From the NCBI GenBank assembly GCA_043780775.1, contig JAYWCE010000131.1, positions 1-46,113 on the forward strand: DNA of 46,113 nt, written 5' to 3'. Under the pieces are notes generated by a model. That model was not told the DNA's origin and made no database searches. It worked only from the letters and a program-made list of their open reading frames with translations. Positions within the stretch are counted from its first letter, which is position 1. The number at the start of each line of letters is the position of its first letter. The position numbers and the translations under genes were made by a program. This DNA comes from Candidatus Altimarinota bacterium (lineage in GTDB: Bacteria > Patescibacteriota > Gracilibacteria > BD1-5 > UBA2023). Shown one piece after another: positions 2 through 46,113 of this stretch.

Positions 2-164
2 AGAGTACTCCTGGCCAGTTCTCGACACAGTGACTGGTGGCGAGGGCTCCACCTGGGAGCTCACCGATGATGAGATTCGAGAGCTTGTATCGGCTTGCGT
101 ACATCCCAGCTGGGAGTCATGCAGATCCTGCACCGATGATGATTGTGTCGTAGACTTGAGACAT
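2..164 (-). CDS. trxB: Thioredoxin-disulfide reductase, N-terminal 54 codons only (gene runs off the window edge)
   Basis: ATG at 164 (minus). MSQVYDTIIIGAGSA[TGA]LPAGMYASRYKLSNLIIGELPGGALATSHCVENWPG. This is the FAD GxGxxG fold, with its third Gly encoded by the TGA at 117..119, plus the TrxB-typical VENWPG motif. Confidence 0.8.
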
Positions 165-215
165 AGAAATTAGGATAAAAAATAATGAGAATGAGTCTCA
201 TTATATGAAAAAGAG

Positions 216-242
216 AAAAAAGACAAGTTTTTTGTCTTTTTT
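216..242 (-). terminator. Rho-independent terminator-like hairpin downstream of the bPH-like gene (A/T-flanked, potentially bidirectional)
   Basis: AAAAAAGACAA-gtttt-TTGTCTTTTTT: an 11-bp stem, 5-nt loop and a T-rich tail on the minus strand. Lies between the bPH gene stop (284) and the trxB start (164). Confidence 0.55.
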
Positions 243-283
243 CTTTCCAAGATGGCTTTATAATGGTCGATATGACAACTCTA

Positions 284-832
284 CTATAGAGTTGGTGTTT
301 TTGCTGGGACATTGTGATGGGCTCGATACTCGCTGATGATTGTATTGATACGATTTCCATTCTCTACGGGATTCGGAGCATAGCTGATTATCATATCTGA
401 GTTCTCACTCGCCGTATGAATATGTATATGTCCATAGTGGAGAATTGTTTGCAGTATTCCATTAACTTCAGCATTAACCTCTTGGACTCGGTCCAGACCA
501 CACTCACTCACTCTCCTTGAGAGTGATGAAATTTGATCAATACCAATGATCCGTTGATCAGTGATAATAAGGAGGTCGAGCTCATTGTTGATCCATGATA
601 AGAGAATAAATGTGAGAAATAGCATCCAGTATACGCTCAATCAGCCCCAGAATATCGCAGTACCAAATATTGTAATGAGAGTCACATTCATTGTTAGAAC
701 AATGAATGTGGTTACTATGAGCATCAATAGATATCCTATTTTGAATACAAAAACGATCCAATGACGATGAAGTAACATAAGGAGATGTTCACCTGCTCGT
801 ATTTGCGATGGGATTTTTAGGTTTTCGAACAT
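284..832 (-). CDS. Membrane protein with bacterial PH-like (bPH_2 / YdbS-YdbT-like) domain
   Basis: 183-codon frame, open only if the TGA at 638..640 is read (it joins track ORFs 641..832 and 284..640); real stop is TAG. GEHLLMLLHRHW, then two hydrophobic helices, then ITDQRIIGIDQ...GILQTILHYGHIHIHTA. This is the layout of bPH_2 membrane-flanked domain proteins. Family call is from motif memory only. Confidence 0.55.
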
Positions 833-1368
833 GTGATATGGGGTGGTTTGAAGTATATAGGAGAGATACGATTCTCTATTTGTTTGACGGCAAATAGACG
901 AGTTATATTGACTCTATCCTCTCTGTATTGTATGGATTTTGTATCTTCTGTCGAGATCATATCTGAGAATATCCCTTCATAGGCTCATATTGGAAGGAGC
1001 TCCTTCGCTATGCTGATAACTGAGTCACCCTGTCTGATGAGATATTCTCGTGGATTGGCCTCGATGATTGGTAGGTTCTCACTCGTGATGAGATCAAAAA
1101 AATGACACGACTTCACGATGATAGCTCTTGTATAGGTGAGACTATTGATCGAGAGTGTGACAACTCGCATGAGTGTGAATGGACCTGGCCCCGTGACGCA
1201 CCAGATCTCATCGATCCCATATTCATCGACAATATCGACAACTATCCGTGGAAATGTCGACGCCGTGTCGAGATTTTTAGCGAGAGTTTTTGTGATAGTT
1301 TGTTCTCAATCAAAAATTAGAAAGTTGATCTCAGGAGTGAGTGGATTGATATAGAGGATGGATGACAT
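817..1368 (-). CDS. tsaB: tRNA threonylcarbamoyladenosine (t6A) biosynthesis protein TsaB/YeaZ-like
   Basis: ATG at 1368. ...IDEIWCVTGPGPFTLMRVVTLSINSL matches the TsaB GPG(S/P)FTG(L)R motif. One internal TGA. The standard-code stop (TGA, 985..987) is read through to TAA at 817..819, adding 56 residues. Overlaps the next gene start by 16 nt. Confidence 0.7.
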
Positions 1369-1377
1369 AATTTTTAT

Positions 1378-2892
1378 TTAGCTACCACGATAGGAGAGTG
1401 CCTCGAGAATATGGCGAACTTCGACAGTTGGCGAACTATCAATATCGGCGATGGTACGGGCAACGCGGAGTATACGATAATATACTCGAGTCGATAGCTT
1501 TAGCTTTTCTGTCGATGATATGGCGATCTTGATTCCATCTTGGCTGATATCTGCGAGCTGCTCGATCTCGACATTCGACATCTCAGCATTGGAGTGGATG
1601 CGTTTTCCTGCGAATCTGGTATGTTGCATTTCTTTGGCTTTCATGACTCTCTCCTTGAGCTCTCGACTCGTTTGTCCAGATCGTTTTTCTCAGAGTTCAC
1701 CTGTCTTGACCCGTGGCACCTGGATGAATATATCGACACGATCGAGGATGGGCCCAGAGAGACGAGATCGATATTTGTCGATCGCCATTGGCGAACAAAC
1801 ACACGGCTTCTCAGGATCACCCATATACCCACAAGGACATGGATTCATCGCACCTACGAGGGAAAAACGAGCTGGATATCGACAGGATTGATTGACACGG
1901 TTGATCGTGATCTCGCCATCTTCGAGAGGCTGGCGAAGTGTTTCGAGTATAGATTTGCTGAATTCGAGGAACTCATCGAGAAATAGTACTCCCTTGTGTG
2001 CGAGTGATATCTCACCAGGTCTCGCCTCTCTACCACCACCGATGATCGATGCCTCACTCGCTGTATGGTGGATCACTCGGAATGGACGATCGACAATGAG
2101 TGGGAGATCCCGAGTCAGGAGCCCTGCTACGGAATATATTTTCGACAGTTCGATCTGTTCCTCGAGTTCCATATCTGGGAGGATTCCTGCCATGGCTTTT
2201 GCTAGCATTGTTTTACCACTTCCTGGTGGTCACTGCATCAAGATATTGTGTCCGCCAGCAGCAGCGATGAGGAGGGCTCGCTTCGCATGTTCCTGTCCGA
2301 TGATGTCTGAGAAGTCGGGTGAATAGATTCATTTCTCATTTTCTACAGGGTCTGGTCGGACTACTCATGCTGGGATAGGGGTATCTCCAGTTAGGATATC
2401 GACTGCATCGGCGAGACAGGCAATGCCAATCACATCGATATTAGGGATCACTGATGCCTCGAGGGTGTTATCGATGGGGAGGAATATTCGCTTCATTCAT
2501 AGTTCTCTCGCGAGTATCGCTGCTGGGAGGGCTCACTGGATCGGTCTCACGAGTCCATCGAGAGCGAGCTCCCCGAGAAAGAGCGATTCTAAAACTATAT
2601 CTGTCCGAAAATCTATATCCTTGCCCAATATACCGAGGGCAATCGGAAGATCATAGATGGGTCACTTCTTCCTCAGATCAGCTGGTGCGAGGTTCACCGT
2701 GATACGGGCCCCAGCCGGGAAGCTATATCCAGAATTCTTCACCGCACTGCGTACTCGCTCTCGACTCTCCTGTATTGCTGCATCACCGAGTCCGACGACC
2801 GTGAACTGTCCCATCCCTGTGATGACATCAACCTCGACCTCTACGAGATGACCAGATATGCCGTAGATGGATGAGGAGAAGAGTTTTTGCAT
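1378..2892 (-). CDS. comM: Mg-chelatase-like AAA+ ATPase ComM/YifB (competence-associated)
   Basis: 505 codons with 7 in-frame TGA. N-terminal Lon-like/ChlI domain ([29 protein letters not shown]). Walker A [TGA]PPGSGKT, with the TGA at 2230..2232 on the minus strand. Walker [25 protein letters not shown] zinc-ribbon-like motif. C-terminal [14 protein letters not shown]. Ends in TAA. Confidence 0.9.
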
Positions 2893-3043
2893 AGTGTACG
2901 AGTTAGGATTTCCAGAGCATTGTAGATATCCAACCATGAAATGCAAGTGACTCCTCGGATTTTCATTTTCTTTTGCACGATTTTGTTCTGTTGTAAAGCA
3001 AAAAGTTGGGTTTTTTTTTGTGAAATGCACTGTATCTGCTAAT

Positions 3044-6028
3044 ATGGGCAGTATGAACAGATTCTTCCTCAGTATCGTTGCGATATTCACTACATTCCAG
3101 CCTGTTCTCGCGATCAGTGTGAGAACAGCTACTCGCTCAGAAAAGGCGACTCCATCACTCTGGTCTACGCTCTGGGAGAGTTTCATGTATATTGCTGAGA
3201 ATATCGTCAATATCCTCCTCGCGGTCATCATCATCTGGATTTGTATCCGACTGATGCGACTCACCTATGAGGTGATGATGACTCCCCGTATGCGATATAT
3301 GAAGGTGACCCTTCCTCGTGCCGACTCCAAGCTGGATAAGGAGCAAGATACTAAAAAAGACTTCAAAGAGAAGATCGGTATCATGACGCTCTTCTATAAG
3401 AGTGTTCACAAGATATCGACGATCAGTGCGTGGAATACGATCCTCAACTTCATCTTCGCTCATGCGAAGATCTCCCTTGAGATGATCTACGCCAATGGTC
3501 AGGTTCATTTTTATCTGGCGGCGTATCAGGAGCATATGACGCTGATCACGCAACAGGTGACCTCGAACTATCCCGATGCTGAGGTAAAACTGATCGCGAA
3601 AGCCGATCTCCCAGAAATCAAGCCACGATGATATGCGCTCGAGGCTGCGTCTATAAGCAAACGCAATGATGATATCTATCCACTCAAGACCTACAAGTAC
3701 TTCGAGGATGATCCACTCTCGTCATTTACCAACAACTTCGGTTCACTCAAAAAAACCGATGTTGCAGCCATCCAGATAGTGATGAAGCCACTCGGGCACA
3801 GTTGGAATCGCAAGGCTAAGAAGGCGGCCGGCCTCGTCGCGAAGGGAGAATACAAAAAAGGACTCAAGAATGGATTTTTTATGAGTGCTATTGGATTTCT
3901 CCTCACGCCGATTTCTTGGTTTTTCTCTCGATTTATCGCCAATGAGGAAACCGCATCGAACGCACCAGGGGCGAGTAGTGGTGACTCGTACAAGATATTC
4001 AATCAGGCAGAGACTGAGGCACAAAAGATGGTGGGGGAATCGGCTGGACAACCAGGATTCGAGGCATCGATCCGCATATTGGTTTCATCCGATACCCGTG
4101 AGTCGGCTCATCAGGGGCTCCAGTCCCTCGTGGCTGCGACCTCTATTTTTACTGATGAATACAATAATCAGCTCGACAATCCGCAGATGATAGAGGATAT
4201 CTTGCGTATCCTATTCACGCCGCTTCGTTATTTTGCATTTGGGTATCGCCTCATCGGGATTTTCCAGAAGATCTCTCGATTCTCCTCTGATGAGATGTCG
4301 ACGATATTCCATTTCCCTGATATCAAGTATAACAAGTCCCCGATCATCGCGTGGCTCGACTACAAGATGCTCTCGATCCCACAGAATCTGAAGTTCCCAA
4401 AAATCCCACTCATCCTCAAGGACTATAAGCGGGATGCGTCGGGCTCCATTTTCACCTCTGATGGATCGCTCTTGCGGGTAGATAAAAATAAAAACCTCTA
4501 TCGAGATGAGAACAAGAATCTCCAACTCACGGGTGGTATGCCTATCTCTGTATTCTCAGAGGGAGCCGATATGGGCAAGCCGGTCGATGCGGGCAAGACC
4601 CCTGTACAGATCGATGCTCAACGAATGCTCGGGGGATTTCCTCTCTATAAAGAGGCAGTTTTGATGGGATGGAATGAATATCGCAATATGAAGACGCCGA
4701 TATATTTTGATCGCAAGGATCGCGGACGACATCACTATATCATCGGTAAGTCAGGAGGATGAAAGTCAGTACTCATCGGATACCTGGCTCGTCAGGATCT
4801 CTGGAATGGGGATGGACTCTGTGTGATCGATCCGCATGGGGATCTTGTTGAGGATATCCTCGCCTTCACGCCCAAGGAACGGGCTCAAGATATGATCATA
4901 TTCGATCCATCAGACTACGAGCGACCACTCGGACTCAATATGCTTGACCTCATCGCGACCGAACCAGCACTGCAGGCAATAGAAAAAGATCGAGCGGCAC
5001 TCGATGCCACCTCGATATTCATCAAGATGTATGGGGATGAGATATTCGGTCCTCGAATCCAACATTATTTCCGCAATGGATGTCTCACGCTCATGGATGA
5101 TTCGGAGGATGGTGGTACACTCATCGATGTACCACGACTCTTTGTGGATGAAGCATTTATGAAATATAAAGTCTCAAAAATCAAAAATGTGATGGTAAGA
5201 GCGTTCTGGGAACATGAGTACGCTCAGACTGGAGATCGTGAGAAGCAGGAGATGATACCATTTTTCTCTGCGAAATTCGGACCATTCATCACCAATACGA
5301 CGATGCGAAACATCATCGGTCAGACGAAGTCAGCATTTAACCTGCGGAAGGTGATGGACGATCAGAAGGTACTCATGGTAAATCTCTCCAAGGGAAAAAT
5401 CGGAGATCTCAATGCTCAGCTTCTCGGTTTGATAATGGTTTCCAAGATCAATATGGCGGCGATGAGTCGAGCGGATATGCCGGAGGAGCTCCGCAAGGAC
5501 TTTTATCTCTATGTAGATGAGTTCCAGAACTTTGCAACGGATACATTCGGGGAGATCCTCTCCGAGGCTCGCAAGTATCGACTCGCACTCATCATGGCCC
5601 ATCAGTTCATCGCCCAGATCGGTGGCAATGGAGCCAAAAAATGAGATAAACCGTCGATCAAGGATGCAGTATTCGGGAATGCGGGGACGATCATGTCGTT
5701 CAAGGTTGGAGCGGATGATGCAGAGTATCTGGAAAAAGAATACGCACCGCTCCTCTCGCAACAGGATATCATCGGTATCGCGAACTTCACCACCTACTGC
5801 AAGCTCAACATCGACAATGCGACCACCAGGCCATTCGATATGAAAACGCTCTGGGACAATACCTATAAGAATGCTGAGGTCTCAAAGATCATCAAGGAAT
5901 ACTCTCGAAAAATGTATGGGCGTAAAAAAGAATATGTTGATATGGAACTCGAGGCTCGCATGGGGATAGTCCGTGAAGAAGCAGACTCAATAGTTCCAAT
6001 CACTGATACCAATAAATCAACTCAATAA
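3044..6028 (+). CDS. Type IV coupling protein-like ATPase (VirD4/TraD/TraG family, DUF87/HerA-like P-loop) with long N-terminal membrane-associated region
   Basis: One frame of 994 aa joins track ORFs 3020.., 3779.., 4823.. and 5693.. through TGAs at 3629, 4760 and 5642. N-terminal hydrophobic segments. [11 protein letters not shown][TGA]KS is Walker A GxxGx[11 protein letters not shown]. Walker [29 protein letters not shown] is a TraD/TraG-type C-terminal motif. Start could be GTG 3020, ATG 3044 or ATG 3053. Confidence 0.7.
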
Positions 6029-6039
6029 TTCCCATTATT

Positions 6040-7248
6040 ATGCTTCACCAAATCCTCCCCATTATTGTTTCACTTCTTGTTATTGTGGATGGCTTTATTC
6101 TTTTTTGATTTTGAGAATATGGATTTATGAGTGACTATGTAAATTCAAATACGATTCTTGCCTCGATTCTGATTATTATTCAATTTCCAATACTTTATAC
6201 TATCCTGTATAAGGCGTATATCGGCCCCATTCAGCTATTAACAAGGGATATTGCTCGTTTTATGACGGGTATCCAAGAGGAGCCACAAATACAACCAAAT
6301 GCATGGAGCGGAGGAATGAATCAGGTTATTATATTTTTTATTAAATCACTTCAGATTCTACGAGTATTCAAACAAGAACTCCGTGATGGTCGCAAGCTCC
6401 GATCTGAGGTTGAGATCGCGAGTGAGATCCAGAAGCAGACACTTGATTACCAGAATATTATAGTACCAGGACTCACCATCGCTATGGCGACAACTCCAGC
6501 ATCAGAGGTTGGTGGAGACTCGCTCGATATTATCCCTGGTCGTGATAATAATCACTATATCTATATTGGTGATGTCACTGGACATGGGGTACCATCAGGA
6601 TTCGTCATGATGATGGTCAATGCTCTGGTATCTGCATTCTCCCTCTCTGAATCCAATGGCGCAAACATCCTTGCACAGACAAATCTGATTCTCAAACCTC
6701 GTATCAAACAGAATATGATGATGACGGCAGTGATGCTCCGTTGGGATGCTACAGCCAAAAAAATGTACTATACAGGTGCAGGACATGAATTTCTCCTCGT
6801 ATATAAGACTAAGGAAAATAAGGTTTATAAAGTTAAAAGTGGTGGTGTTGCACTTGGTATGGTTAAAGATTCTACTAAAATTCTCAAAGAACAACAGATT
6901 GCTTTTGATCCCGGAGATATCATCGTACTCTATACTGATGGTATCAGTGAGGCAAGATATCGCTCTGAACAGACAGGTAGACTCTTTGGTGTTGATCATA
7001 TTATAGATTCGCTCATGTCTATAAATATCAAAAATCCAGAAAATATATTTCGCCAACTTACTATCGATCTCTCTGCATGGATGGGGTATAAACATAAACA
7101 GTATGATGATATCTCTCTCGCTGTTGTGGGATATAATAGTGATTGACAAGAAGCACAAACTCTCCTCGATATCTATAAGCATATAGATAGCACCAATATA
7201 ACTGAATGGAACTGGTGACTCAAAAAAATAGAACAATCTGTAACATAA
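6040..7248 (+). CDS. Membrane-anchored PP2C-type (SpoIIE/RsbU-like) serine phosphatase
   Basis: GGDSLDIIP...HYIYIGDVTGHGVPSGFVMMMVNALV...IIVLYTDGISEA are the SpoIIE/PP2C metal-binding motifs. Hydrophobic N-terminus. The standard-code stop TGA at 7144..7146 is read through to TAA at 7246..7248 (+34 aa). ATG 6040 adds a hydrophobic helix through two TGAs; alternative start is ATG 6127. Confidence 0.8.
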
Positions 7249-7260
7249 CATATACCACCC

Positions 7261-9210
7261 ATGTCTCTCCCTACTCTCACAGAACTCATCACCAAAAACT
7301 ATACCTGAGATGTTGAATGACTCGAATCACTCACTCCAGTATCTTTTTCTGGATCTCATAATACCGTTATATCGCCAACTTCGACACCTTCGCCAAATCT
7401 ATCAGTATCACCGAGTACTGCTGTATCAGTGCCATCATATATCGATGCTGGAGATCGCAAGCTGACGCGAGAAGAGGCGATGGAACTCAAGGATACTGAG
7501 AGGGAATACAATGAGTCACTGGCATTCATCAAGGATGCGATTGCTCCTGCGATGATGCGGATTGACCCAACCAAGCTCCAAATCGGAGATACCTATGTTC
7601 GGACAATATTCACCTATGCCTATCCTGATGTGCTCGAGGGGAATTGGCTCTCACCGCTCATCAACTGGGATGTGAAGTTTGATATCTCTATGTATATCTA
7701 TCCAGTTGATTCAGCTCGTGTGATGAAGTTTCTCCGTAAGCGACTCACTCAACTCGGATCACAGCGAGCTATGAATAATGGCAAATGACTCATCGGAGAT
7801 CCCCATCTCGATGCTCAGATCCAAGATGTTGAAGAACTCCAGCAATATCTCACGCGTGGTCAGGAGAAGTATTTTCACTTCTCACTCTATATCACGACCT
7901 ATGCAGAGAGTGAAGATGAGATGAAAAAACTGACGAATATGCTCGATATGATGCTCGCAGGCCGCAATATCCTCACAAAGCAAACATTTCTCAGGGCAGA
8001 GCAAGGATTCATTGCGACGGGTCCATTTGCTCGTGATGAAGTCAATGTGTTCCGCAATATCTCAACAAAGGGTCTCTCTACTACATTTCCATTTAGCTCC
8101 AACTCTCTCTCTCAGGATGATGGGATATTCTATGGTATAAATACTCATAATAAGTCACTCATCATATTCGACCGATTCCGTTCTGAGAACGCCAATATGT
8201 GTGTATTTGCCAAGTCAGGATGATGAAAATCGTTCGCCGTGAAACTCGAGATCCTCAGGGCCCTCATGATGGGGACAGATGTCATCGTCCTCGATCCAGA
8301 GAATGAGTACAAAGCACTCGTAGATACGGTCTGAGGTACGTATCTCAATATTTCCCTGAATTCCAATGAGAAGATCAATCCGTTCGATCTCCCACGTTCA
8401 CTCAAAGATAGTGAAACCCATATTGGGGATCTTCTCCGCTGAGCTATCGTGAATATGATCGGACTCCTCAGGCTCATGCTCGGTATCATCACTCCGAATG
8501 AAGAAGCACTCCTCGAGAAGGCGATCATCACGACCTACTCACTCAAGGGCATCACGATGGAGGATGACTCTATCGATGGCAAAGAGATACCACTCCTGAA
8601 GGATCTCTACTCGGTTCTCGAAACGATGGATGGAGCTGTTTGACTCGTAAATCGACTCGAGAAGTATATATTCGGAGTGTTTTCTGGAGTATTCTCTCGA
8701 CCGACGAATGTCGACCTCAAGTGATGACTCGTCGTCTTCTCTGTACGAGACCTCGATGATATTCTCCGCCCGATCGCTATGTATATCCTCCTTACCTACG
8801 TGTGGAATGTAGCGAGATCGAGTGAGAAGAAGCGATTCCTCGTCGTCGATGAGGCATGGAATATCATGCAATATGAGGACTCAGCGAAATTTCTTTTTGG
8901 TCTTGTAAAAAGAGCTCGAAAATATGGACTCGGGGTCACGACGATCACCCAGGATGTCGAGGACTTCATGGGATCATCATATGGCAAGGCGATCGTGACT
9001 AACTCATCGATCCAACTCCTTCTCAAGCAGTCACCTGCATCCATCGATGTCCTGCAGAACGTATTCAAACTCACCGAACAAGAGAAATATATCCTCCTGA
9101 ATGCCTCGGTTGGTACAGGACTCTTCTTCGCGGGAGGTGAACATGTGGGTATCGAAATACTCTCATCCTATTTCGAAGAGAAAATCATTACCACCAAACC
9201 AAATGTATAA
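7261..9210 (+). CDS. VirB4/TrbE/CagE-like type IV secretion ATPase
   Basis: 649 aa assembled from 5 track ORFs through 10 in-frame TGAs. Walker A CVFAKSG[TGA][TGA]KS = GxxGGGKS (TGA doublet at 8221..8226). VIVLDPENEY...INPFDL. Walker B RFLVVDEAWNIM. RKYGLGVTTITQDVEDF. Ends in TAA. Confidence 0.8.
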
Positions 9211-10108
9211 TCCTACTCAATCACATAGGGGCTCTGCCCTTATCGTCGGGCTCATTATCGTCGTGTTACTGACGATCTTGACGACCAGTTTTCTCGAGAA
9301 AATCCTGAATCTTGGGAAGACGAGTGGTGGTATCGGTAACTCTGCTCAGTCCTATTATCTCGCTACAGGACTCATCGAGGAACAACTGATGGATGGCCTG
9401 ATGACCAGAGCAGAACCATGGAAGATACCTACAAAAATAGAATGAACTGCTGCTACATGACGGACACTCACAGCATATACGGGTGGCACGATGATGCCTG
9501 AACAGTGAGCATGAGGACTTCCATGAAAATGAAATAGCTCATTTGACTCTAACTGGAATATTATCGGTATAGGTGAACCAGTTCAGATCGTTATTCCTGC
9601 TGGAATTATTGATTGGAGTACTGTGATTTTTCATTTTAGAGTTCCTAGTATCCTAGGTGCAGTTAGCAATACTGGGAGTTCTAGTAGCTCAGGAGTTATC
9701 CTTTGGACTTTTGGATATTCATGAGCATCACTCTACGCAAGTGGAGAAACAGAGATTTTTCAATGAATCCATATCACAAACAATACACCGCTTCCTACAC
9801 TTACTAGTAAAAATGGACTTACAAATACTGGAGTATCGATGCAATTTTGAAACTTTTATAGTGCGTATGGATCAAATTGTGCCTGATTTCAATGTACCCT
9901 GAAGTTATCAATGATACGCTCATTTGTGACAGATTTATGACAATCATTCCCATTTCTTGAATACCAGATTAGTTTTCCTGTAACAATACCGAGTCAATAT
10001 ATGATCATTGACTCGTCAGCCTATGTGCTCGGATACCTCCGCTCTCGCCAGGTGCGTATACCACAGATTACAACCAACACTGCTACTGACTTCGCTATTC
10101 TCCAATAA
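9203..10108 (+). CDS. PilX-like / pseudopilin-type protein (N-terminal hydrophobic pilin-like helix)
   Basis: 301-codon frame, open only under code 25 (11 in-frame TGA). MYNPTQSHRGSALIVGLIIVVLLTILTTSF...AQSYYLATGLIEEQL resembles the PilX_N motif (QRG-aL-hydrophobic helix ... A-yyhAEaGle). ATG overlaps the VirB4 stop by 8 nt. Stop TAA at 10106..10108. Confidence 0.5.
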
Positions 10109-11139: not shown

Positions 11140-11152
11140 TAACTCATCATCT

Positions 11153-11872: not shown

Positions 11873-11880
11873 TTTTTCAT

Positions 11881-34476: not shown

Positions 34477-34962
34477 CTAGAGTGATTGGAGTGGGTCCAG
34501 TATCGGTTGGTCTTTTGGTTCTATTTTTATGTATACTGGAGCTTGCCACCACTGCTTGATTGCCGTGATATCAGTAGAGTGAAACGTCTCTTCTCACTGG
34601 AATATAACTCGCATATCGAGTGGACTCATGAGTCCCAGATGAGTCGCAAGATCTCGCGACTCGACGAGTGAGACATACCGGAGTCGAGCTGTATCCATGA
34701 ATGCTCGAGTCAACCAGAGAAGAGAGAGGAGTCGGATCTCCTGAGCTATAGGCTGCGTCTCATCATAGGCAATGAGTATAACTCGCTTCTCAGTGATGAG
34801 CGTATCGTACTCAGCTTGTGTTTTGATAAAAAGAGGTGTCATCTGTATCTGTTCTTCTGTGAATTCTGCAGCCTTTTTTCCATATTGTTTTGCTCGGTCG
34901 AGATACGGATCCATCTTGGAGATATATGGTGTCATTGTTTCTGTGAGTTTTTTCCAGTCCAT
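34477..34962 (-). CDS. Hypothetical, possibly thioredoxin-fold protein (mirror copy)
   Basis: Exact reverse complement of 11153..11638. Confidence 0.4.
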
Positions 34963-34975
34963 AGATGATGAGTTA

Positions 34976-36007: not shown

Positions 36008-36912
36008 TATTGGAGAATAGCGAAGTCAGTAGCAGTGTTGGTTGTAATCTGTGGTATACGCACCTGGCGAGAGCGGAGGTATCCGAGCACATAGGCTGAC
36101 GAGTCAATGATCATATATTGACTCGGTATTGTTACAGGAAAACTAATCTGGTATTCAAGAAATGGGAATGATTGTCATAAATCTGTCACAAATGAGCGTA
36201 TCATTGATAACTTCAGGGTACATTGAAATCAGGCACAATTTGATCCATACGCACTATAAAAGTTTCAAAATTGCATCGATACTCCAGTATTTGTAAGTCC
36301 ATTTTTACTAGTAAGTGTAGGAAGCGGTGTATTGTTTGTGATATGGATTCATTGAAAAATCTCTGTTTCTCCACTTGCGTAGAGTGATGCTCATGAATAT
36401 CCAAAAGTCCAAAGGATAACTCCTGAGCTACTAGAACTCCCAGTATTGCTAACTGCACCTAGGATACTAGGAACTCTAAAATGAAAAATCACAGTACTCC
36501 AATCAATAATTCCAGCAGGAATAACGATCTGAACTGGTTCACCTATACCGATAATATTCCAGTTAGAGTCAAATGAGCTATTTCATTTTCATGGAAGTCC
36601 TCATGCTCACTGTTCAGGCATCATCGTGCCACCCGTATATGCTGTGAGTGTCCGTCATGTAGCAGCAGTTCATTCTATTTTTGTAGGTATCTTCCATGGT
36701 TCTGCTCTGGTCATCAGGCCATCCATCAGTTGTTCCTCGATGAGTCCTGTAGCGAGATAATAGGACTGAGCAGAGTTACCGATACCACCACTCGTCTTCC
36801 CAAGATTCAGGATTTTCTCGAGAAAACTGGTCGTCAAGATCGTCAGTAACACGACGATAATGAGCCCGACGATAAGGGCAGAGCCCCTATGTGATTGAGT
36901 AGGATTATACAT
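36007..36912 (-). CDS. PilX-like / pseudopilin-type protein (mirror copy)
   Basis: Exact reverse complement of 9203..10108. Confidence 0.5.
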
Positions 36913-38854
36913 TTGGTTTGGTGGTAATGATTTTCTCTTCGAAATAGGATGAGAGTATTTCGATACCCACATGTTCACCTCCCGCGAAGAAGAGTCCTGT
37001 ACCAACCGAGGCATTCAGGAGGATATATTTCTCTTGTTCGGTGAGTTTGAATACGTTCTGCAGGACATCGATGGATGCAGGTGACTGCTTGAGAAGGAGT
37101 TGGATCGATGAGTTAGTCACGATCGCCTTGCCATATGATGATCCCATGAAGTCCTCGACATCCTGGGTGATCGTCGTGACCCCGAGTCCATATTTTCGAG
37201 CTCTTTTTACAAGACCAAAAAGAAATTTCGCTGAGTCCTCATATTGCATGATATTCCATGCCTCATCGACGACGAGGAATCGCTTCTTCTCACTCGATCT
37301 CGCTACATTCCACACGTAGGTAAGGAGGATATACATAGCGATCGGGCGGAGAATATCATCGAGGTCTCGTACAGAGAAGACGACGAGTCATCACTTGAGG
37401 TCGACATTCGTCGGTCGAGAGAATACTCCAGAAAACACTCCGAATATATACTTCTCGAGTCGATTTACGAGTCAAACAGCTCCATCCATCGTTTCGAGAA
37501 CCGAGTAGAGATCCTTCAGGAGTGGTATCTCTTTGCCATCGATAGAGTCATCCTCCATCGTGATGCCCTTGAGTGAGTAGGTCGTGATGATCGCCTTCTC
37601 GAGGAGTGCTTCTTCATTCGGAGTGATGATACCGAGCATGAGCCTGAGGAGTCCGATCATATTCACGATAGCTCAGCGGAGAAGATCCCCAATATGGGTT
37701 TCACTATCTTTGAGTGAACGTGGGAGATCGAACGGATTGATCTTCTCATTGGAATTCAGGGAAATATTGAGATACGTACCTCAGACCGTATCTACGAGTG
37801 CTTTGTACTCATTCTCTGGATCGAGGACGATGACATCTGTCCCCATCATGAGGGCCCTGAGGATCTCGAGTTTCACGGCGAACGATTTTCATCATCCTGA
37901 CTTGGCAAATACACACATATTGGCGTTCTCAGAACGGAATCGGTCGAATATGATGAGTGACTTATTATGAGTATTTATACCATAGAATATCCCATCATCC
38001 TGAGAGAGAGAGTTGGAGCTAAATGGAAATGTAGTAGAGAGACCCTTTGTTGAGATATTGCGGAACACATTGACTTCATCACGAGCAAATGGACCCGTCG
38101 CAATGAATCCTTGCTCTGCCCTGAGAAATGTTTGCTTTGTGAGGATATTGCGGCCTGCGAGCATCATATCGAGCATATTCGTCAGTTTTTTCATCTCATC
38201 TTCACTCTCTGCATAGGTCGTGATATAGAGTGAGAAGTGAAAATACTTCTCCTGACCACGCGTGAGATATTGCTGGAGTTCTTCAACATCTTGGATCTGA
38301 GCATCGAGATGGGGATCTCCGATGAGTCATTTGCCATTATTCATAGCTCGCTGTGATCCGAGTTGAGTGAGTCGCTTACGGAGAAACTTCATCACACGAG
38401 CTGAATCAACTGGATAGATATACATAGAGATATCAAACTTCACATCCCAGTTGATGAGCGGTGAGAGCCAATTCCCCTCGAGCACATCAGGATAGGCATA
38501 GGTGAATATTGTCCGAACATAGGTATCTCCGATTTGGAGCTTGGTTGGGTCAATCCGCATCATCGCAGGAGCAATCGCATCCTTGATGAATGCCAGTGAC
38601 TCATTGTATTCCCTCTCAGTATCCTTGAGTTCCATCGCCTCTTCTCGCGTCAGCTTGCGATCTCCAGCATCGATATATGATGGCACTGATACAGCAGTAC
38701 TCGGTGATACTGATAGATTTGGCGAAGGTGTCGAAGTTGGCGATATAACGGTATTATGAGATCCAGAAAAAGATACTGGAGTGAGTGATTCGAGTCATTC
38801 AACATCTCAGGTATAGTTTTTGGTGATGAGTTCTGTGAGAGTAGGGAGAGACAT
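36905..38854 (-). CDS. VirB4-like type IV secretion ATPase (mirror copy)
   Basis: Exact reverse complement of 7261..9210. Confidence 0.8.
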
Positions 38855-38866
38855 GGGTGGTATATG

Positions 38867-40075
38867 TTATGTTACAGATTGTTCTATTTTTTTGAGTCAC
38901 CAGTTCCATTCAGTTATATTGGTGCTATCTATATGCTTATAGATATCGAGGAGAGTTTGTGCTTCTTGTCAATCACTATTATATCCCACAACAGCGAGAG
39001 AGATATCATCATACTGTTTATGTTTATACCCCATCCATGCAGAGAGATCGATAGTAAGTTGGCGAAATATATTTTCTGGATTTTTGATATTTATAGACAT
39101 GAGCGAATCTATAATATGATCAACACCAAAGAGTCTACCTGTCTGTTCAGAGCGATATCTTGCCTCACTGATACCATCAGTATAGAGTACGATGATATCT
39201 CCGGGATCAAAAGCAATCTGTTGTTCTTTGAGAATTTTAGTAGAATCTTTAACCATACCAAGTGCAACACCACCACTTTTAACTTTATAAACCTTATTTT
39301 CCTTAGTCTTATATACGAGGAGAAATTCATGTCCTGCACCTGTATAGTACATTTTTTTGGCTGTAGCATCCCAACGGAGCATCACTGCCGTCATCATCAT
39401 ATTCTGTTTGATACGAGGTTTGAGAATCAGATTTGTCTGTGCAAGGATGTTTGCGCCATTGGATTCAGAGAGGGAGAATGCAGATACCAGAGCATTGACC
39501 ATCATCATGACGAATCCTGATGGTACCCCATGTCCAGTGACATCACCAATATAGATATAGTGATTATTATCACGACCAGGGATAATATCGAGCGAGTCTC
39601 CACCAACCTCTGATGCTGGAGTTGTCGCCATAGCGATGGTGAGTCCTGGTACTATAATATTCTGGTAATCAAGTGTCTGCTTCTGGATCTCACTCGCGAT
39701 CTCAACCTCAGATCGGAGCTTGCGACCATCACGGAGTTCTTGTTTGAATACTCGTAGAATCTGAAGTGATTTAATAAAAAATATAATAACCTGATTCATT
39801 CCTCCGCTCCATGCATTTGGTTGTATTTGTGGCTCCTCTTGGATACCCGTCATAAAACGAGCAATATCCCTTGTTAATAGCTGAATGGGGCCGATATACG
39901 CCTTATACAGGATAGTATAAAGTATTGGAAATTGAATAATAATCAGAATCGAGGCAAGAATCGTATTTGAATTTACATAGTCACTCATAAATCCATATTC
40001 TCAAAATCAAAAAAGAATAAAGCCATCCACAATAACAAGAAGTGAAACAATAATGGGGAGGATTTGGTGAAGCAT
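38867..40075 (-). CDS. Membrane PP2C/SpoIIE-type phosphatase (mirror copy)
   Basis: Exact reverse complement of 6040..7248. Confidence 0.8.
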
Positions 40076-40086
40076 AATAATGGGAA

Positions 40087-43071
40087 TTATTGAGTTGATT
40101 TATTGGTATCAGTGATTGGAACTATTGAGTCTGCTTCTTCACGGACTATCCCCATGCGAGCCTCGAGTTCCATATCAACATATTCTTTTTTACGCCCATA
40201 CATTTTTCGAGAGTATTCCTTGATGATCTTTGAGACCTCAGCATTCTTATAGGTATTGTCCCAGAGCGTTTTCATATCGAATGGCCTGGTGGTCGCATTG
40301 TCGATGTTGAGCTTGCAGTAGGTGGTGAAGTTCGCGATACCGATGATATCCTGTTGCGAGAGGAGCGGTGCGTATTCTTTTTCCAGATACTCTGCATCAT
40401 CCGCTCCAACCTTGAACGACATGATCGTCCCCGCATTCCCGAATACTGCATCCTTGATCGACGGTTTATCTCATTTTTTGGCTCCATTGCCACCGATCTG
40501 GGCGATGAACTGATGGGCCATGATGAGTGCGAGTCGATACTTGCGAGCCTCGGAGAGGATCTCCCCGAATGTATCCGTTGCAAAGTTCTGGAACTCATCT
40601 ACATAGAGATAAAAGTCCTTGCGGAGCTCCTCCGGCATATCCGCTCGACTCATCGCCGCCATATTGATCTTGGAAACCATTATCAAACCGAGAAGCTGAG
40701 CATTGAGATCTCCGATTTTTCCCTTGGAGAGATTTACCATGAGTACCTTCTGATCGTCCATCACCTTCCGCAGGTTAAATGCTGACTTCGTCTGACCGAT
40801 GATGTTTCGCATCGTCGTATTGGTGATGAATGGTCCGAATTTCGCAGAGAAAAATGGTATCATCTCCTGCTTCTCACGATCTCCAGTCTGAGCGTACTCA
40901 TGTTCCCAGAACGCTCTTACCATCACATTTTTGATTTTTGAGACTTTATATTTCATAAATGCTTCATCCACAAAGAGTCGTGGTACATCGATGAGTGTAC
41001 CACCATCCTCCGAATCATCCATGAGCGTGAGACATCCATTGCGGAAATAATGTTGGATTCGAGGACCGAATATCTCATCCCCATACATCTTGATGAATAT
41101 CGAGGTGGCATCGAGTGCCGCTCGATCTTTTTCTATTGCCTGCAGTGCTGGTTCGGTCGCGATGAGGTCAAGCATATTGAGTCCGAGTGGTCGCTCGTAG
41201 TCTGATGGATCGAATATGATCATATCTTGAGCCCGTTCCTTGGGCGTGAAGGCGAGGATATCCTCAACAAGATCCCCATGCGGATCGATCACACAGAGTC
41301 CATCCCCATTCCAGAGATCCTGACGAGCCAGGTATCCGATGAGTACTGACTTTCATCCTCCTGACTTACCGATGATATAGTGATGTCGTCCGCGATCCTT
41401 GCGATCAAAATATATCGGCGTCTTCATATTGCGATATTCATTCCATCCCATCAAAACTGCCTCTTTATAGAGAGGAAATCCCCCGAGCATTCGTTGAGCA
41501 TCGATCTGTACAGGGGTCTTGCCCGCATCGACCGGCTTGCCCATATCGGCTCCCTCTGAGAATACAGAGATAGGCATACCACCCGTGAGTTGGAGATTCT
41601 TGTTCTCATCTCGATAGAGGTTTTTATTTTTATCTACCCGCAAGAGCGATCCATCAGAGGTGAAAATGGAGCCCGACGCATCCCGCTTATAGTCCTTGAG
41701 GATGAGTGGGATTTTTGGGAACTTCAGATTCTGTGGGATCGAGAGCATCTTGTAGTCGAGCCACGCGATGATCGGGGACTTGTTATACTTGATATCAGGG
41801 AAATGGAATATCGTCGACATCTCATCAGAGGAGAATCGAGAGATCTTCTGGAAAATCCCGATGAGGCGATACCCAAATGCAAAATAACGAAGCGGCGTGA
41901 ATAGGATACGCAAGATATCCTCTATCATCTGCGGATTGTCGAGCTGATTATTGTATTCATCAGTAAAAATAGAGGTCGCAGCCACGAGGGACTGGAGCCC
42001 CTGATGAGCCGACTCACGGGTATCGGATGAAACCAATATGCGGATCGATGCCTCGAATCCTGGTTGTCCAGCCGATTCCCCCACCATCTTTTGTGCCTCA
42101 GTCTCTGCCTGATTGAATATCTTGTACGAGTCACCACTACTCGCCCCTGGTGCGTTCGATGCGGTTTCCTCATTGGCGATAAATCGAGAGAAAAACCAAG
42201 AAATCGGCGTGAGGAGAAATCCAATAGCACTCATAAAAAATCCATTCTTGAGTCCTTTTTTGTATTCTCCCTTCGCGACGAGGCCGGCCGCCTTCTTAGC
42301 CTTGCGATTCCAACTGTGCCCGAGTGGCTTCATCACTATCTGGATGGCTGCAACATCGGTTTTTTTGAGTGAACCGAAGTTGTTGGTAAATGACGAGAGT
42401 GGATCATCCTCGAAGTACTTGTAGGTCTTGAGTGGATAGATATCATCATTGCGTTTGCTTATAGACGCAGCCTCGAGCGCATATCATCGTGGCTTGATTT
42501 CTGGGAGATCGGCTTTCGCGATCAGTTTTACCTCAGCATCGGGATAGTTCGAGGTCACCTGTTGCGTGATCAGCGTCATATGCTCCTGATACGCCGCCAG
42601 ATAAAAATGAACCTGACCATTGGCGTAGATCATCTCAAGGGAGATCTTCGCATGAGCGAAGATGAAGTTGAGGATCGTATTCCACGCACTGATCGTCGAT
42701 ATCTTGTGAACACTCTTATAGAAGAGCGTCATGATACCGATCTTCTCTTTGAAGTCTTTTTTAGTATCTTGCTCCTTATCCAGCTTGGAGTCGGCACGAG
42801 GAAGGGTCACCTTCATATATCGCATACGGGGAGTCATCATCACCTCATAGGTGAGTCGCATCAGTCGGATACAAATCCAGATGATGATGACCGCGAGGAG
42901 GATATTGACGATATTCTCAGCAATATACATGAAACTCTCCCAGAGCGTAGACCAGAGTGATGGAGTCGCCTTTTCTGAGCGAGTAGCTGTTCTCACACTG
43001 ATCGCGAGAACAGGCTGGAATGTAGTGAATATCGCAACGATACTGAGGAAGAATCTGTTCATACTGCCCAT
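40087..43071 (-). CDS. VirD4/TraD-like coupling ATPase (mirror copy)
   Basis: Exact reverse complement of 3044..6028. Confidence 0.7.
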
Positions 43072-43222
43072 ATTAGCAGATACAGTGCATTTCACAAAAA
43101 AAAACCCAACTTTTTGCTTTACAACAGAACAAAATCGTGCAAAAGAAAATGAAAATCCGAGGAGTCACTTGCATTTCATGGTTGGATATCTACAATGCTC
43201 TGGAAATCCTAACTCGTACACT

Positions 43223-44737
43223 ATGCAAAAACTCTTCTCCTCATCCATCTACGGCATATCTGGTCATCTCGTAGAGGTCGAGGTTGATGTCATCACAGGG
43301 ATGGGACAGTTCACGGTCGTCGGACTCGGTGATGCAGCAATACAGGAGAGTCGAGAGCGAGTACGCAGTGCGGTGAAGAATTCTGGATATAGCTTCCCGG
43401 CTGGGGCCCGTATCACGGTGAACCTCGCACCAGCTGATCTGAGGAAGAAGTGACCCATCTATGATCTTCCGATTGCCCTCGGTATATTGGGCAAGGATAT
43501 AGATTTTCGGACAGATATAGTTTTAGAATCGCTCTTTCTCGGGGAGCTCGCTCTCGATGGACTCGTGAGACCGATCCAGTGAGCCCTCCCAGCAGCGATA
43601 CTCGCGAGAGAACTATGAATGAAGCGAATATTCCTCCCCATCGATAACACCCTCGAGGCATCAGTGATCCCTAATATCGATGTGATTGGCATTGCCTGTC
43701 TCGCCGATGCAGTCGATATCCTAACTGGAGATACCCCTATCCCAGCATGAGTAGTCCGACCAGACCCTGTAGAAAATGAGAAATGAATCTATTCACCCGA
43801 CTTCTCAGACATCATCGGACAGGAACATGCGAAGCGAGCCCTCCTCATCGCTGCTGCTGGCGGACACAATATCTTGATGCAGTGACCACCAGGAAGTGGT
43901 AAAACAATGCTAGCAAAAGCCATGGCAGGAATCCTCCCAGATATGGAACTCGAGGAACAGATCGAACTGTCGAAAATATATTCCGTAGCAGGGCTCCTGA
44001 CTCGGGATCTCCCACTCATTGTCGATCGTCCATTCCGAGTGATCCACCATACAGCGAGTGAGGCATCGATCATCGGTGGTGGTAGAGAGGCGAGACCTGG
44101 TGAGATATCACTCGCACACAAGGGAGTACTATTTCTCGATGAGTTCCTCGAATTCAGCAAATCTATACTCGAAACACTTCGCCAGCCTCTCGAAGATGGC
44201 GAGATCACGATCAACCGTGTCAATCAATCCTGTCGATATCCAGCTCGTTTTTCCCTCGTAGGTGCGATGAATCCATGTCCTTGTGGGTATATGGGTGATC
44301 CTGAGAAGCCGTGTGTTTGTTCGCCAATGGCGATCGACAAATATCGATCTCGTCTCTCTGGGCCCATCCTCGATCGTGTCGATATATTCATCCAGGTGCC
44401 ACGGGTCAAGACAGGTGAACTCTGAGAAAAACGATCTGGACAAACGAGTCGAGAGCTCAAGGAGAGAGTCATGAAAGCCAAAGAAATGCAACATACCAGA
44501 TTCGCAGGAAAACGCATCCACTCCAATGCTGAGATGTCGAATGTCGAGATCGAGCAGCTCGCAGATATCAGCCAAGATGGAATCAAGATCGCCATATCAT
44601 CGACAGAAAAGCTAAAGCTATCGACTCGAGTATATTATCGTATACTCCGCGTTGCCCGTACCATCGCCGATATTGATAGTTCGCCAACTGTCGAAGTTCG
44701 CCATATTCTCGAGGCACTCTCCTATCGTGGTAGCTAA
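43223..44737 (+). CDS. comM: ComM/YifB Mg-chelatase-like ATPase (mirror copy)
   Basis: Exact reverse complement of 1378..2892. Walker A TGA at 43883..43885. Frame checked codon by codon on this copy. Confidence 0.9.
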
Positions 44738-44746
44738 ATAAAAATT

Positions 44747-45298
44747 ATGTCATCCATCCTCTATATCAATCCACTCACTCCTGAGATCAACTTTCTAATT
44801 TTTGATTGAGAACAAACTATCACAAAAACTCTCGCTAAAAATCTCGACACGGCGTCGACATTTCCACGGATAGTTGTCGATATTGTCGATGAATATGGGA
44901 TCGATGAGATCTGGTGCGTCACGGGGCCAGGTCCATTCACACTCATGCGAGTTGTCACACTCTCGATCAATAGTCTCACCTATACAAGAGCTATCATCGT
45001 GAAGTCGTGTCATTTTTTTGATCTCATCACGAGTGAGAACCTACCAATCATCGAGGCCAATCCACGAGAATATCTCATCAGACAGGGTGACTCAGTTATC
45101 AGCATAGCGAAGGAGCTCCTTCCAATATGAGCCTATGAAGGGATATTCTCAGATATGATCTCGACAGAAGATACAAAATCCATACAATACAGAGAGGATA
45201 GAGTCAATATAACTCGTCTATTTGCCGTCAAACAAATAGAGAATCGTATCTCTCCTATATACTTCAAACCACCCCATATCACATGTTCGAAAACCTAA
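44747..45298 (+). CDS. tsaB: TsaB/YeaZ-like protein (mirror copy)
   Basis: Exact reverse complement of 817..1368. TGA at 45128..45130 is read through to TAA at 45296..45298. Confidence 0.7.
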
Positions 45299-45831
45299 AA
45301 ATCCCATCGCAAATACGAGCAGGTGAACATCTCCTTATGTTACTTCATCGTCATTGGATCGTTTTTGTATTCAAAATAGGATATCTATTGATGCTCATAG
45401 TAACCACATTCATTGTTCTAACAATGAATGTGACTCTCATTACAATATTTGGTACTGCGATATTCTGGGGCTGATTGAGCGTATACTGGATGCTATTTCT
45501 CACATTTATTCTCTTATCATGGATCAACAATGAGCTCGACCTCCTTATTATCACTGATCAACGGATCATTGGTATTGATCAAATTTCATCACTCTCAAGG
45601 AGAGTGAGTGAGTGTGGTCTGGACCGAGTCCAAGAGGTTAATGCTGAAGTTAATGGAATACTGCAAACAATTCTCCACTATGGACATATACATATTCATA
45701 CGGCGAGTGAGAACTCAGATATGATAATCAGCTATGCTCCGAATCCCGTAGAGAATGGAAATCGTATCAATACAATCATCAGCGAGTATCGAGCCCATCA
45801 CAATGTCCCAGCAAAAACACCAACTCTATAG
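45283..45831 (+). CDS. bPH-like membrane protein (mirror copy)
   Basis: Exact reverse complement of 284..832. Confidence 0.55.
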
Positions 45832-45872
45832 TAGAGTTGTCATATCGACCATTATAAAGCCATCTTGGAAAG

Positions 45873-45899
45873 AAAAAAGACAAAAAACTTGTCTTTTTT
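45873..45899 (+). terminator. Mirror copy of the terminator-like hairpin 216..242
   Basis: Exact reverse complement. Confidence 0.55.
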
Positions 45900-45950
45900 C
45901 TCTTTTTCATATAATGAGACTCATTCTCATTATTTTTTATCCTAATTTCT

Positions 45951-46113
45951 ATGTCTCAAGTCTACGACACAATCATCATCGGTGCAGGATCTGCATGACT
46001 CCCAGCTGGGATGTACGCAAGCCGATACAAGCTCTCGAATCTCATCATCGGTGAGCTCCCAGGTGGAGCCCTCGCCACCAGTCACTGTGTCGAGAACTGG
46101 CCAGGAGTACTCT
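45951..46113 (+). CDS. trxB: Thioredoxin-disulfide reductase N-terminal fragment (mirror copy)
   Basis: Exact reverse complement of 2..164. ATG at 45951; TGA(Gly) at 45996..45998 inside GxGxxG. Confidence 0.8.

Follow-up and report, generated by a model that had tools for sequence, protein, structure and literature searches.

Contigs that are palindromic over their whole length are a known output of SPAdes, also from isolates with ordinary circular genomes, and 81 such contigs in M. bovis were judged to be assembly errors (PMC9455707). Palindromic (k-1)-mers make inverted loops in the assembly graph, which SPAdes and MEGAHIT traverse to give palindromic contigs (Rahman & Medvedev, bioRxiv 10.1101/2022.01.20.477068). 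Inverted joins are also frequent in multiple displacement amplification (MDA), where more than 85% of the chimeras are inversions, primed on a complementarity of 2–21 nt (Lasken & Stockwell 2007, PMC1855051).

The window analyzed here, an entire NCBI contig of 46,113 bases, shares with the palindromic contigs from de Bruijn graphs (PMC9455707; bioRxiv 10.1101/2022.01.20.477068) that the whole contig is one exact palindrome, but it carries one extra 5' base, unlike a pure palindromic unitig. With the MDA and library chimeras (PMC1855051), it shares an inverted join primed on short self-complementarity; for priming by snap-back, a terminator hairpin is ideally suited. Those chimeras, however, usually carry an intervening deletion and are not exactly symmetric at the join; if the window is of this type, its exact symmetry requires priming within the natural dyad. 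Hairpin telomeres (Borrelia ResT, Agrobacterium TelA, phage N15 TelN, and phiKO2 TelK) also appear upon sequencing as a spacer-less perfect inverted repeat at the replicon end, as seen here, but no resolvase gene was seen in the arm, the relatives have no chromosome end at the locus, and the site is terminator-like. Bidirectional rho-independent terminators between convergent genes share with the axis of the palindrome an A-tract, a 10-bp stem (4 G-C pairs), a 4-nt loop, and a T-tract, as well as the location downstream of yidC, which is the same in five relatives. They differ in that the right half of the axis is also the mirror image created by the fold-back, and in that the convergent partner, DUF5665, is not visible in the contig. 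The analyses described below led us to conclude that the contig is very probably an artefact, namely a fold-back chimera of one 23-kb chromosomal piece, folded at a natural terminator hairpin.

Geometry of the palindrome

In an offset comparison of the window with its reverse complement, the sequence from position 2 to 46113 was identical to its own reverse complement, with 0 mismatches in 46,112 bases, and every other offset gave more than 32,000 mismatches. A perfect 46-kb palindrome cannot have arisen by chance. The symmetry axis lies at 23057/23058, between CTCTTCCAAGT and ACTTGGAAGAG. The base composition (A = T = 13020, G = 10037, and C = 10036) reflects the same symmetry, the surplus G being position 1, which lies outside the palindrome. 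The NCBI contig that carries an exactly matching protein (P0021) is 46113 bases long, as is the window. The palindrome thus occupies the entire contig, without unique flanks and with a single unpaired base.

These results bear out the exact reverse-complement halves and the axis reported in a preliminary description of this DNA. Its statement that the axis has no loop is literally true, although the GTAC centre is self-complementary and can act as a natural hairpin loop. It also held that both ends stop at the same base in trxB; the gene is indeed cut, but the ends differ by one base, the G at position 1. This extra G, and with it the odd size of the contig, is unexplained by a pure palindromic unitig.

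Such a geometry could also come from a real inverted duplication, in which a break near the terminator hairpin, intrastrand annealing, and replication produced two head-to-head 23-kb arms in vivo. The assembler would then have collapsed the arms, leaving a contig that ends at the outer boundary in trxB; such a collapse would make the arms identical and have both ends stop at one and the same base. Short inverted repeats also serve as starting points of fold-back inversions in vivo, and a terminator-like axis is therefore no argument against a real duplication. In bacteria, however, SbcCD/hairpin processing and replication slippage make long spacer-less palindromes unstable or inviable. The duplication must also be so recent as to show 0 differences in 23 kb, yet be dominant in the sampled population. 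In addition, the outer boundary falls within VENWPG, a conserved motif of trxB where a metagenome graph would typically branch, and assemblers are known to produce contigs that are palindromic from end to end (PMC9455707).

Gene content and genetic code of one arm

The arm runs from trxB through VirD4/VirB4-like, RluD, Wzy, sigma-factor, and pilin genes to rpmH-rnpA-yidC (Table 1). The trxB gene starts at position 164 on the minus strand, runs off the left contig end, and is cut within the conserved VENWPG stretch. The best protein matches are named Candidatus Gracilibacteria, and the YidC of the window is 77–85% identical to the Gracilibacteria YidC matches. When TGA was taken as a sense codon, the total ORF length in the window increased threefold; TGA stood opposite glycine in 17 of the 24 non-TGA cases and opposite tryptophan in none. 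The earlier assignment of genetic code 25, in which TGA encodes glycine, is thus supported. A Pfam scan of the 18 large ORFs of the arm detected no telomere-resolvase, integrase, or phage domain.

Table 1. Features of the palindromic contig
Feature	Position	Strand	Evidence or remark
Lone extra base G, outside the palindrome, making the contig odd-sized	1..1		0 mismatches at offset 1 only
Left arm, read as the single genuine copy of a chromosomal segment of Gracilibacteria, 23,056 bp, code 25	2..23057	+	Palindrome test, code, domains, synteny with L001, L002, and L005
trxB 5' end, 54 codons, thioredoxin-reductase-like, MSQVYDTIIIGAGSAGL…VENWPGVL	1..164, mirror 45951-46113 (+)	-	Pyr_redox_2
ComM/Mg-chelatase-family ATPase	1378..2892 (start approximate)	-	Mg_chelatase, 5e-92
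VirD4/HerA-like coupling ATPase	3044..6028 (start approximate)	+	DUF87, TrwB_AAD_bind
SpoIIE/PP2C-type phosphatase	6040..7248	+	Domain scan
VirB4/TraG-type P-loop ATPase	7261..9210	+	Domain scan
RluD-type pseudouridine synthase	10108..11139	+	Domain scan
Wzy_C / O-antigen-ligase-like membrane protein	12268..13458	+	Domain scan
S8 subtilase, 1357 aa, with SLH domain	13428..17501	-	Missing from the same position in L001
Sigma70_r4 / HARE-HTH protein	17611..18687	-	Domain scan
Type IV pilin-like protein, N-terminal methylation motif	19640..20844	+	N_methyl
rpmH, L34-like with extension	20919..21176, mirror 24939-25196 (-)	+	Translation; syntenic L001 gene matches Ribosomal_L34
rnpA, RNase P protein	21267..21632, mirror 24483-24848 (-)	+	Ribonuclease_P, 2.3e-8
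yidC, membrane insertase, final gene before the axis	21604..22851, mirror 23264-24511 (-)	+	60KD_IMP, 6.6e-50
Non-coding tail 3' of yidC	22852..23034	+	Repeats; without homologue in relatives
Axis hairpin CCCAATAAAAA-TCTCTTCCAA-GTAC-TTGGAAGAGA-TTTTTATTGGG, bidirectional intrinsic-terminator architecture	23035..23080		Sequence; -30.2 kcal/mol; relatives' terminators
Right arm, exact reverse complement of 2..23057, read as an artefactual second pass	23058..46113	-	0 mismatches; mirrored yidC translates identically

Synteny in relatives

The comparison covered five relatives in which the spacer after yidC is complete: L001 (95-kb contig), L002 (167-kb), L004 (6.4-kb), L005 (34-kb), and L006. Their YidC proteins are 77–83% identical to that of the window (82% in the assembly holding L006). 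The upstream gene order from VirB4 to yidC in L001, L002, and L005 is the same as in the window, and the closest relative, L005, shows 85% nucleotide identity over rpmH-yidC. Past yidC, the next gene in all five is DUF5665 on the minus strand, followed by CNNM; the L004 contig stops inside the gene after DUF5665. Further on lie NusA, RarA/MgsA, and EF-G in L001, L002, and L006, and NusA and RarA/MgsA in L005. Since the relatives run on past yidC, chromosomes of the lineage do not end at this locus. P0123 was considered as the "other side" of the axis and rejected, as its contig comes from a different assembly (GCA_014377245.1) and belongs to a relative in which yidC and DUF5665 are adjacent.

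The yidC/DUF5665 spacer of all five relatives contains a hairpin made of an A-tract, a stem, and a T-tract, that is, a bidirectional terminator. In L005 it is a 56-bp palindrome with a loop of 0 and one mismatch, the right arm of which overlaps the DUF5665 stop codon. The spacing is similar too: the dyad of L005 lies about 168 bp beyond the yidC stop, and the axis of the window 206 bp. By analogy with these genomes, a DUF5665-like gene presumably follows the axis in the true sequence. The synteny argument is drawn from the relatives, the closest of which has 85% DNA identity, rather than from the organism of the window, because the tail after yidC is non-homologous and a DUF5665 remnant went undetected. 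An axis-adjacent 30-mer was absent from the GTDB-representative genomes and the JGI metagenome contigs, the YidC of the window organism was in no other public assembly, and exact-protein look-ups of two table-11 YidC fragments returned nothing on record.

No duplication of these genes was found in L001, L002, or L005, which, together with the points given above, makes a real inverted duplication improbable.

The synteny also bears on a suggestion of the preliminary description, namely that the contig is a read-through of a covalently closed hairpin telomere. A linear chromosome or replicon would then end about 206 bp after yidC. A denatured hairpin end, once sequenced, would give a perfect spacer-less palindrome without unique DNA past the axis, and such an inverted repeat is what we found; it is, however, common to the telomere and artefact readings. 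The tail after yidC is non-homologous to the relatives, and its short repeats could be protein-binding sites. On the other side, all five relatives pass through the locus into DUF5665-CNNM, and four of them on to NusA-RarA, on contigs of up to 167 kb; at the position equivalent to the proposed replicon end, contigs of 34–167 kb continue without a break in synteny. The axis resembles a conserved transcription terminator that is internal in the relatives, and the Pfam scan of the 18 large ORFs revealed no resolvase-like domain. Moreover, circular closure has been achieved for Gracilibacteria genomes of about 1.0 Mb (PMC8172020), and a literature search found no report of a linear chromosome in Gracilibacteria, the two papers that contain both terms using them in unrelated contexts. 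The telomere suggestion is therefore unsupported, and we regard it as highly unlikely.

Axis hairpin

The axis has the architecture AATAAAAA-TCTCTTCCAA-GTAC-TTGGAAGAGA-TTTTTATT, with 7 A residues in 8, a 10-bp stem containing 4 G-C pairs, the GTAC centre, and a mirrored T-tract (-30.2 kcal/mol). Of all the points in the arm at which a fold-back could occur, only 1.1–5.1% have comparable terminator-like features. The left half of the hairpin and its site downstream of yidC fit an intrinsic terminator; the right half is indistinguishable from the mirror image of the left one, which also masks the convergent gene. A terminator scan with a limit of 20 stem pairs did not call the axis hairpin, probably because the mirrored stem exceeds this limit. 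The arm contains no other perfect spacer-less palindrome of at least 20 bp; a 13+2+13 hairpin at positions 683–710 has an AG spacer that is not self-complementary. From the architecture and the terminators of the relatives, we infer that the axis hairpin is a natural palindrome from which the fold-back started, and its right half is presumably present in the real genome. A natural terminator hairpin is a place where inverted loops of the graph or snap-back chimeras are expected.

The position of the axis also bears on whether a palindromic long read seeded the contig, either through a missed SMRTbell adaptor or through nanopore template-complement read-through. Both kinds of read are palindromic and have no spacer, as observed for the contig. 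An artefact of this kind, however, predicts an axis at a random fragment end, whereas the actual axis falls on a terminator-type dyad (1–5% by chance), and two noisy passes seldom polish to 0 differences in 23 kb. We consider an origin from such a read to have very little probability. The preliminary description had favored an artefact and offered three routes to it; the preference stands, but the missed hairpin adaptor is the least likely of the three, since the axis would then fall at a random fragment end and not at a natural dyad.

Non-coding tail after yidC

The tail between yidC and the axis hairpin holds a 24-bp tandem repeat in two copies (22949–22996), three copies of ATACTCTT, and a 13-bp inverted repeat (22858–22870 and 23023–23035). 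When the 206 bp up to the axis were compared with the 700 bp that follow yidC in four relatives, no homology appeared (z ≤1.8 against shuffles; blastn). A repeated mobile element was rejected, as the repeats are absent from the rest of the arm, and so was a known RNA, as the tail has no Rfam family and no tRNA. No promoter-like site was found in the tail.

A minus-strand peptide at the axis, LEEIFIGISEK-stop (23055–23020), resembled the C-terminus of DUF5665 (MEKVLLEIRDSLKK-stop), raising the possibility of a DUF5665 remnant. This candidate was rejected: no DUF5665 protein ending in a similar manner was found on public record, and the peptide scored -1.8 bits with an HMM built from 120 DUF5665 homologues, far below the top six-frame match. 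The plus-strand counterpart, LDTLIFQKSQ-stop, was also missing from the HMM matches.

Proposed origin and consequences

The artefact had already been called in the preliminary description, with every gene to be counted once, and our analysis upholds this because the arms show 100% identity, the palindrome takes up the entire contig, the relatives continue past yidC, and the axis lies on a terminator-type hairpin. The real DNA would be a single stretch of 23 kb, reaching from trxB to rpmH-rnpA-yidC in a Gracilibacteria chromosome of circular type. Downstream of yidC there would be a bidirectional intrinsic terminator, a perfect dyad of about 40 bp or more that reads approximately AATAAAAA-stem-GTAC-stem-TTTTTATT. 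Because the dyad is its own reverse complement, one of two routes has probably acted. In the first, the de Bruijn k-mers at the dyad centre would join their own reverse complements in an inverted loop and, with the true continuation missing, pruned, or mis-resolved, the assembler would retrace its path in the opposite orientation. In the second, a single strand ending in the hairpin would snap back and be extended during an amplification or library step, giving chimeric reads that the assembler followed. If the second arm comes from reading one graph path a second time, in reverse, the 0 mismatches, the lack of a spacer (GTAC being self-complementary), and the two ends at the same place in trxB would all follow. 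An in-vivo fold-back would likewise start at such a hairpin.

It is unlikely that the fold-back is physical, whether as a linear chromosome whose hairpin telomere coincides with the yidC terminator or is derived from it, or as a genuine 46-kb spacer-less palindrome in vivo. To our knowledge, neither a hairpin telomere nor a giant in-vivo palindrome has a precedent in the Candidate Phyla Radiation, and a physical structure would be the first of either kind in a bacterium of this group.

As an artefact, the contig carries no biological weight and matters as data hygiene. Each of its genes is almost certainly to be counted once. The contig contains 23 kb twice, in a genome of about 1 Mb, which would inflate the genome size, create false paralogues of approximately 20 genes, including the single-copy markers rpmH, rnpA, and yidC, and raise "contamination/duplication" scores. 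It is best reduced to positions 2..23057, to which no more than the right half of the hairpin may be added. The fold-back point is non-random, lying on a spacer-less palindromic bidirectional terminator of a type that is common in the clade (56 bp in one relative), and such terminators should therefore be predictable hot-spots for palindromic contigs in metagenome assemblies.

The palindrome spans the entire contig

Positions 2–46113 of the window match their reverse complement without a single mismatch (all registers were compared, and any other gave >32,000 mismatches). The axis lies between positions 23057 and 23058, reading …AAAAATCTCTTCCAAGT|ACTTGGAAGAGATTTTT…, and the sole unpaired base in the window is a G at position 1. 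The perfect palindrome claimed in the preliminary description was thus borne out, and its mirror ends were confirmed; the two ends are, however, not entirely identical as claimed there, since the unpaired G leaves a difference of one base. This extra G, which also accounts for the odd number of bases in the window (a pure palindromic unitig must be even), is probably a detail of the assembler or of trimming. A protein identical to the YidC fragment of the window (P0021) is recorded on one single NCBI contig, which has 46113 bases, indicating that the window is the entire contig and hence that the palindrome is the entire contig. The outer end of the window falls within the conserved …HCVENWPGVL stretch of trxB. 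We read the …VENWPG… stretch as a typical branch point of a metagenome graph, plausibly arising from k-mers common to several metagenome genomes.

Locus downstream of yidC in related genomes

Contigs of relatives were chosen by their closest YidC proteins. From the VirB4-like gene through yidC, the window's genes follow the same order as in L001 (GCA_014377305.1, 95 kb), L002 (JGI, 167 kb), and L005 (ENA, 34 kb), the last of which is the closest relative. Past yidC, these three contigs carry the genes for DUF5665 (-), CNNM (+), NusA (-), and RarA/MgsA, and L001 and L002 run further, to EF-G. The yidC/DUF5665/CNNM junction is also found in two other relatives' contigs, L004 and L006. The fact that the relatives continue past yidC indicates that the site after this gene is located mid-chromosome in the lineage. 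No second assembly of the window's organism was found in the searched collections, and a similar continuation beyond 23057 would be expected by comparison with the relatives, the closest of which (L005) is 85% identical to the window in nucleotide sequence across rpmH-rnpA-yidC.

The preliminary description had also raised, as a secondary idea, a hairpin telomere that was sequenced through. Such a telomere would likewise yield a mirror image without a spacer, but in every relative this locus has an internal position, the axis is built like the conserved terminator of this spacer (described below), and a Pfam scan of the 18 large ORFs of the arm revealed no resolvase, integrase, or phage domains. 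We therefore consider a telomere extremely unlikely. Metagenomes have yielded two circularised Gracilibacteria genomes of ~1.0 Mb (PMC8172020). Searching the literature for linear Gracilibacteria chromosomes gave nothing relevant; the two terms co-occurred in two papers, one of which was consulted, and only in unrelated places.

A further relative contig, L003 (JACMPX010000028.1), and L006 (JACMPX010000004.1), both of GCA_014377245.1, end within yidC from opposite sides, indicating that this assembly broke inside that gene.

A terminator-type dyad at the axis

In each of the five relatives whose yidC/DUF5665 spacer is complete, this spacer contains a hairpin consisting of an A-tract, a stem, and a T-tract; in four of them, the hairpin directly borders or overlaps the stop codon of DUF5665. 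In L005, CAAGAAATAAAAATAATCCCTCTGAAAT|ATTTCAGGGGGATTATTTTTATTTCTTG forms a 56-bp near-perfect palindrome without a spacer, the right arm of which overlaps the DUF5665 stop codon. The axis of the window, CCCAATAAAAA-TCTCTTCCAA-GTAC-TTGGAAGAGA-TTTTTATTGGG, is composed of an A-rich octamer (7/8), a stem of 10 bp (four of them G-C), GTAC as a self-complementary centre, and a T-tract. Folding of 23035–23080 gave -30.2 kcal/mol. When every arm position on both strands was treated as if the contig had folded back there, only 1.1–5.1% of the points would yield a comparable A-tract and stem. The built-in terminator scan did not call the axis site, probably because the mirrored stem exceeds the 20-pair limit and thus no T-tract follows "the stem". 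We infer that the contig folded back at a natural bidirectional terminator of palindromic sequence, the right half of which is indistinguishable from the mirror image.

The yidC stop codon and the dyad are separated by 206 non-coding bases in the window, compared to ~168 bp in L005. The tail (22852–23034) contains a 24-bp tandem repeat in two copies (22949–22996, 92% identical), three copies of ATACTCTT, and a perfect 13-bp inverted repeat (22858–22870 and 23023–23035, with 152 nt between the copies). These motifs have no further occurrence in the arm, the tail has no Rfam match, and no homology was found between the 206-bp tail and the relatives' spacers or DUF5665. The tail may possibly be a small regulatory or MITE-like element. 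A stretch of 11 residues at the axis initially seemed an attractive "remnant" of DUF5665 but did not pass an HMM test (-1.8 bits) and was dropped.

Proposed mechanism of the fold-back

A fold-back would be expected where a sequence equals its own reverse complement, through either the assembly graph or a chimera. In the graph route, with odd k, a k-mer with a palindromic (k-1)-suffix would be linked by an edge to its reverse complement; were this inverted loop the sole way onward, the doubled graph would have a palindrome as its maximal unitig. If the natural dyad is ~40–46 bp, small k (21–39) would satisfy this condition, and thin coverage, pruning, or mis-resolution of the true continuation would suffice. 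Palindromic edges are traversed by SPAdes and MEGAHIT and broken at by ABySS (bioRxiv 10.1101/2022.01.20.477068). In the chimera route, a single strand with the hairpin at its end would snap back and undergo extension; inversions primed on 2–21 nt of complementarity make up more than 85% of MDA chimeras (PMC1855051). By either route, the 0 mismatches would result from one path read twice, the absence of a spacer at the axis from the self-complementary GTAC, and the identical outer ends from a path that stops where the graph stops, inside the …VENWPG… stretch. On this reading, the true sequence would leave the hairpin around AATAAAAATCTCTTCCAAGTACTTGGAAGAGATTTTTATT and, within ~10–30 bp, enter the 3' end of a DUF5665-type gene on the minus strand, with CNNM and NusA beyond it. 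Assembly of Mycobacterium bovis isolates with SPAdes 3.14 gave 81 whole-contig palindromes, reported as assembly errors (PMC9455707), and in the window, too, the palindrome is the whole contig.

A real in vivo inverted duplication, with its two arms collapsed into one contig by the assembler, would look the same, and its nucleation at a hairpin would be expected as well. This explanation, however, needs a very recent, population-dominant, spacer-less 46-kb palindrome, and long spacer-less palindromes are normally not tolerated in bacteria (SbcCD, palindrome instability); we regard it as quite improbable. With a missed adaptor in long-read sequencing, the axis would lie at an arbitrary end of a fragment and two error-free arms would be rare, leaving this artefact with hardly any likelihood.

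The palindrome is real and exact as an observation but very probably not a biological feature. The analyses support a fold-back artefact, the genes of which should be counted once, as the preliminary description had proposed, and the location of the fold-back point on a terminator-type dyad sharpens that proposal. We recommend cutting the contig at the axis. The long palindromic terminators, bidirectional and flanked by A/T, that lie between yidC and DUF5665 in the Gracilibacteria relatives are predictable hot-spots for assembler fold-back.

Gene content and genetic code

The standard code gave fragmented ORFs, and reading TGA as sense increased the total ORF length threefold, with ORFs of up to 1357 aa. 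At in-frame TGA codons of the window or relatives, the partner codon encoded Gly in 17 of the 24 non-TGA cases and Trp in none. The top protein matches carry the name Candidatus Gracilibacteria. These sequence comparisons together support the use of code 25 in the window. Neither a tRNA nor an Rfam family was found on the arm.

Genes of the arm and terminator-type hairpins of the relatives
Feature	Sequence	Position	Strand	Remarks
trxB 5' end	window	1-164	-	
bPH_2 membrane protein	arm			
ComM/Mg-chelatase ATPase	arm			
VirD4/HerA-like ATPase	arm	within 3044-9210		~994 aa
SpoIIE phosphatase	arm	within 3044-9210		
VirB4/TraG-like ATPase	arm	within 3044-9210		
RluD	arm			
Wzy-like protein	arm			neighbour of S8 subtilase gene
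S8 subtilase with SLH domain	arm	13428-17501 (mirror 28614-32687)	-	1357 aa
Sigma70_r4/HARE-HTH protein	arm			neighbour of S8 subtilase gene
pilin-like protein	arm			
rpmH	arm			
rnpA	arm			
yidC	arm	21604-22851		
hairpin	L001	~11223-11269		arms 23 nt, loop 1 nt
hairpin	L002	~11209-11243		arms 17 nt, loop 1 nt
hairpin	L004			A-tract/stem/T-tract, larger loop
hairpin	L005	11341-11396		arms 28 nt, 1 mismatch, loop 0
hairpin	L006	~10440-10475		arms AAAAAAACGTA…TACGTTTTTTT

The S8 subtilase gene sits between the Wzy-like and sigma-like genes, which adjoin each other in L001 (Wzy_C, 5312–5935; sigma, 5978–7018), suggesting that the 4-kb subtilase gene is a lineage-specific insertion or was lost in L001. 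The VirD4/HerA-like, SpoIIE, and VirB4/TraG-like genes form a conserved chromosomal cluster, at least the VirB4-like end of which is syntenic in L001, L002, and L005, indicating that the cluster is core to the clade and is not a mobile element.
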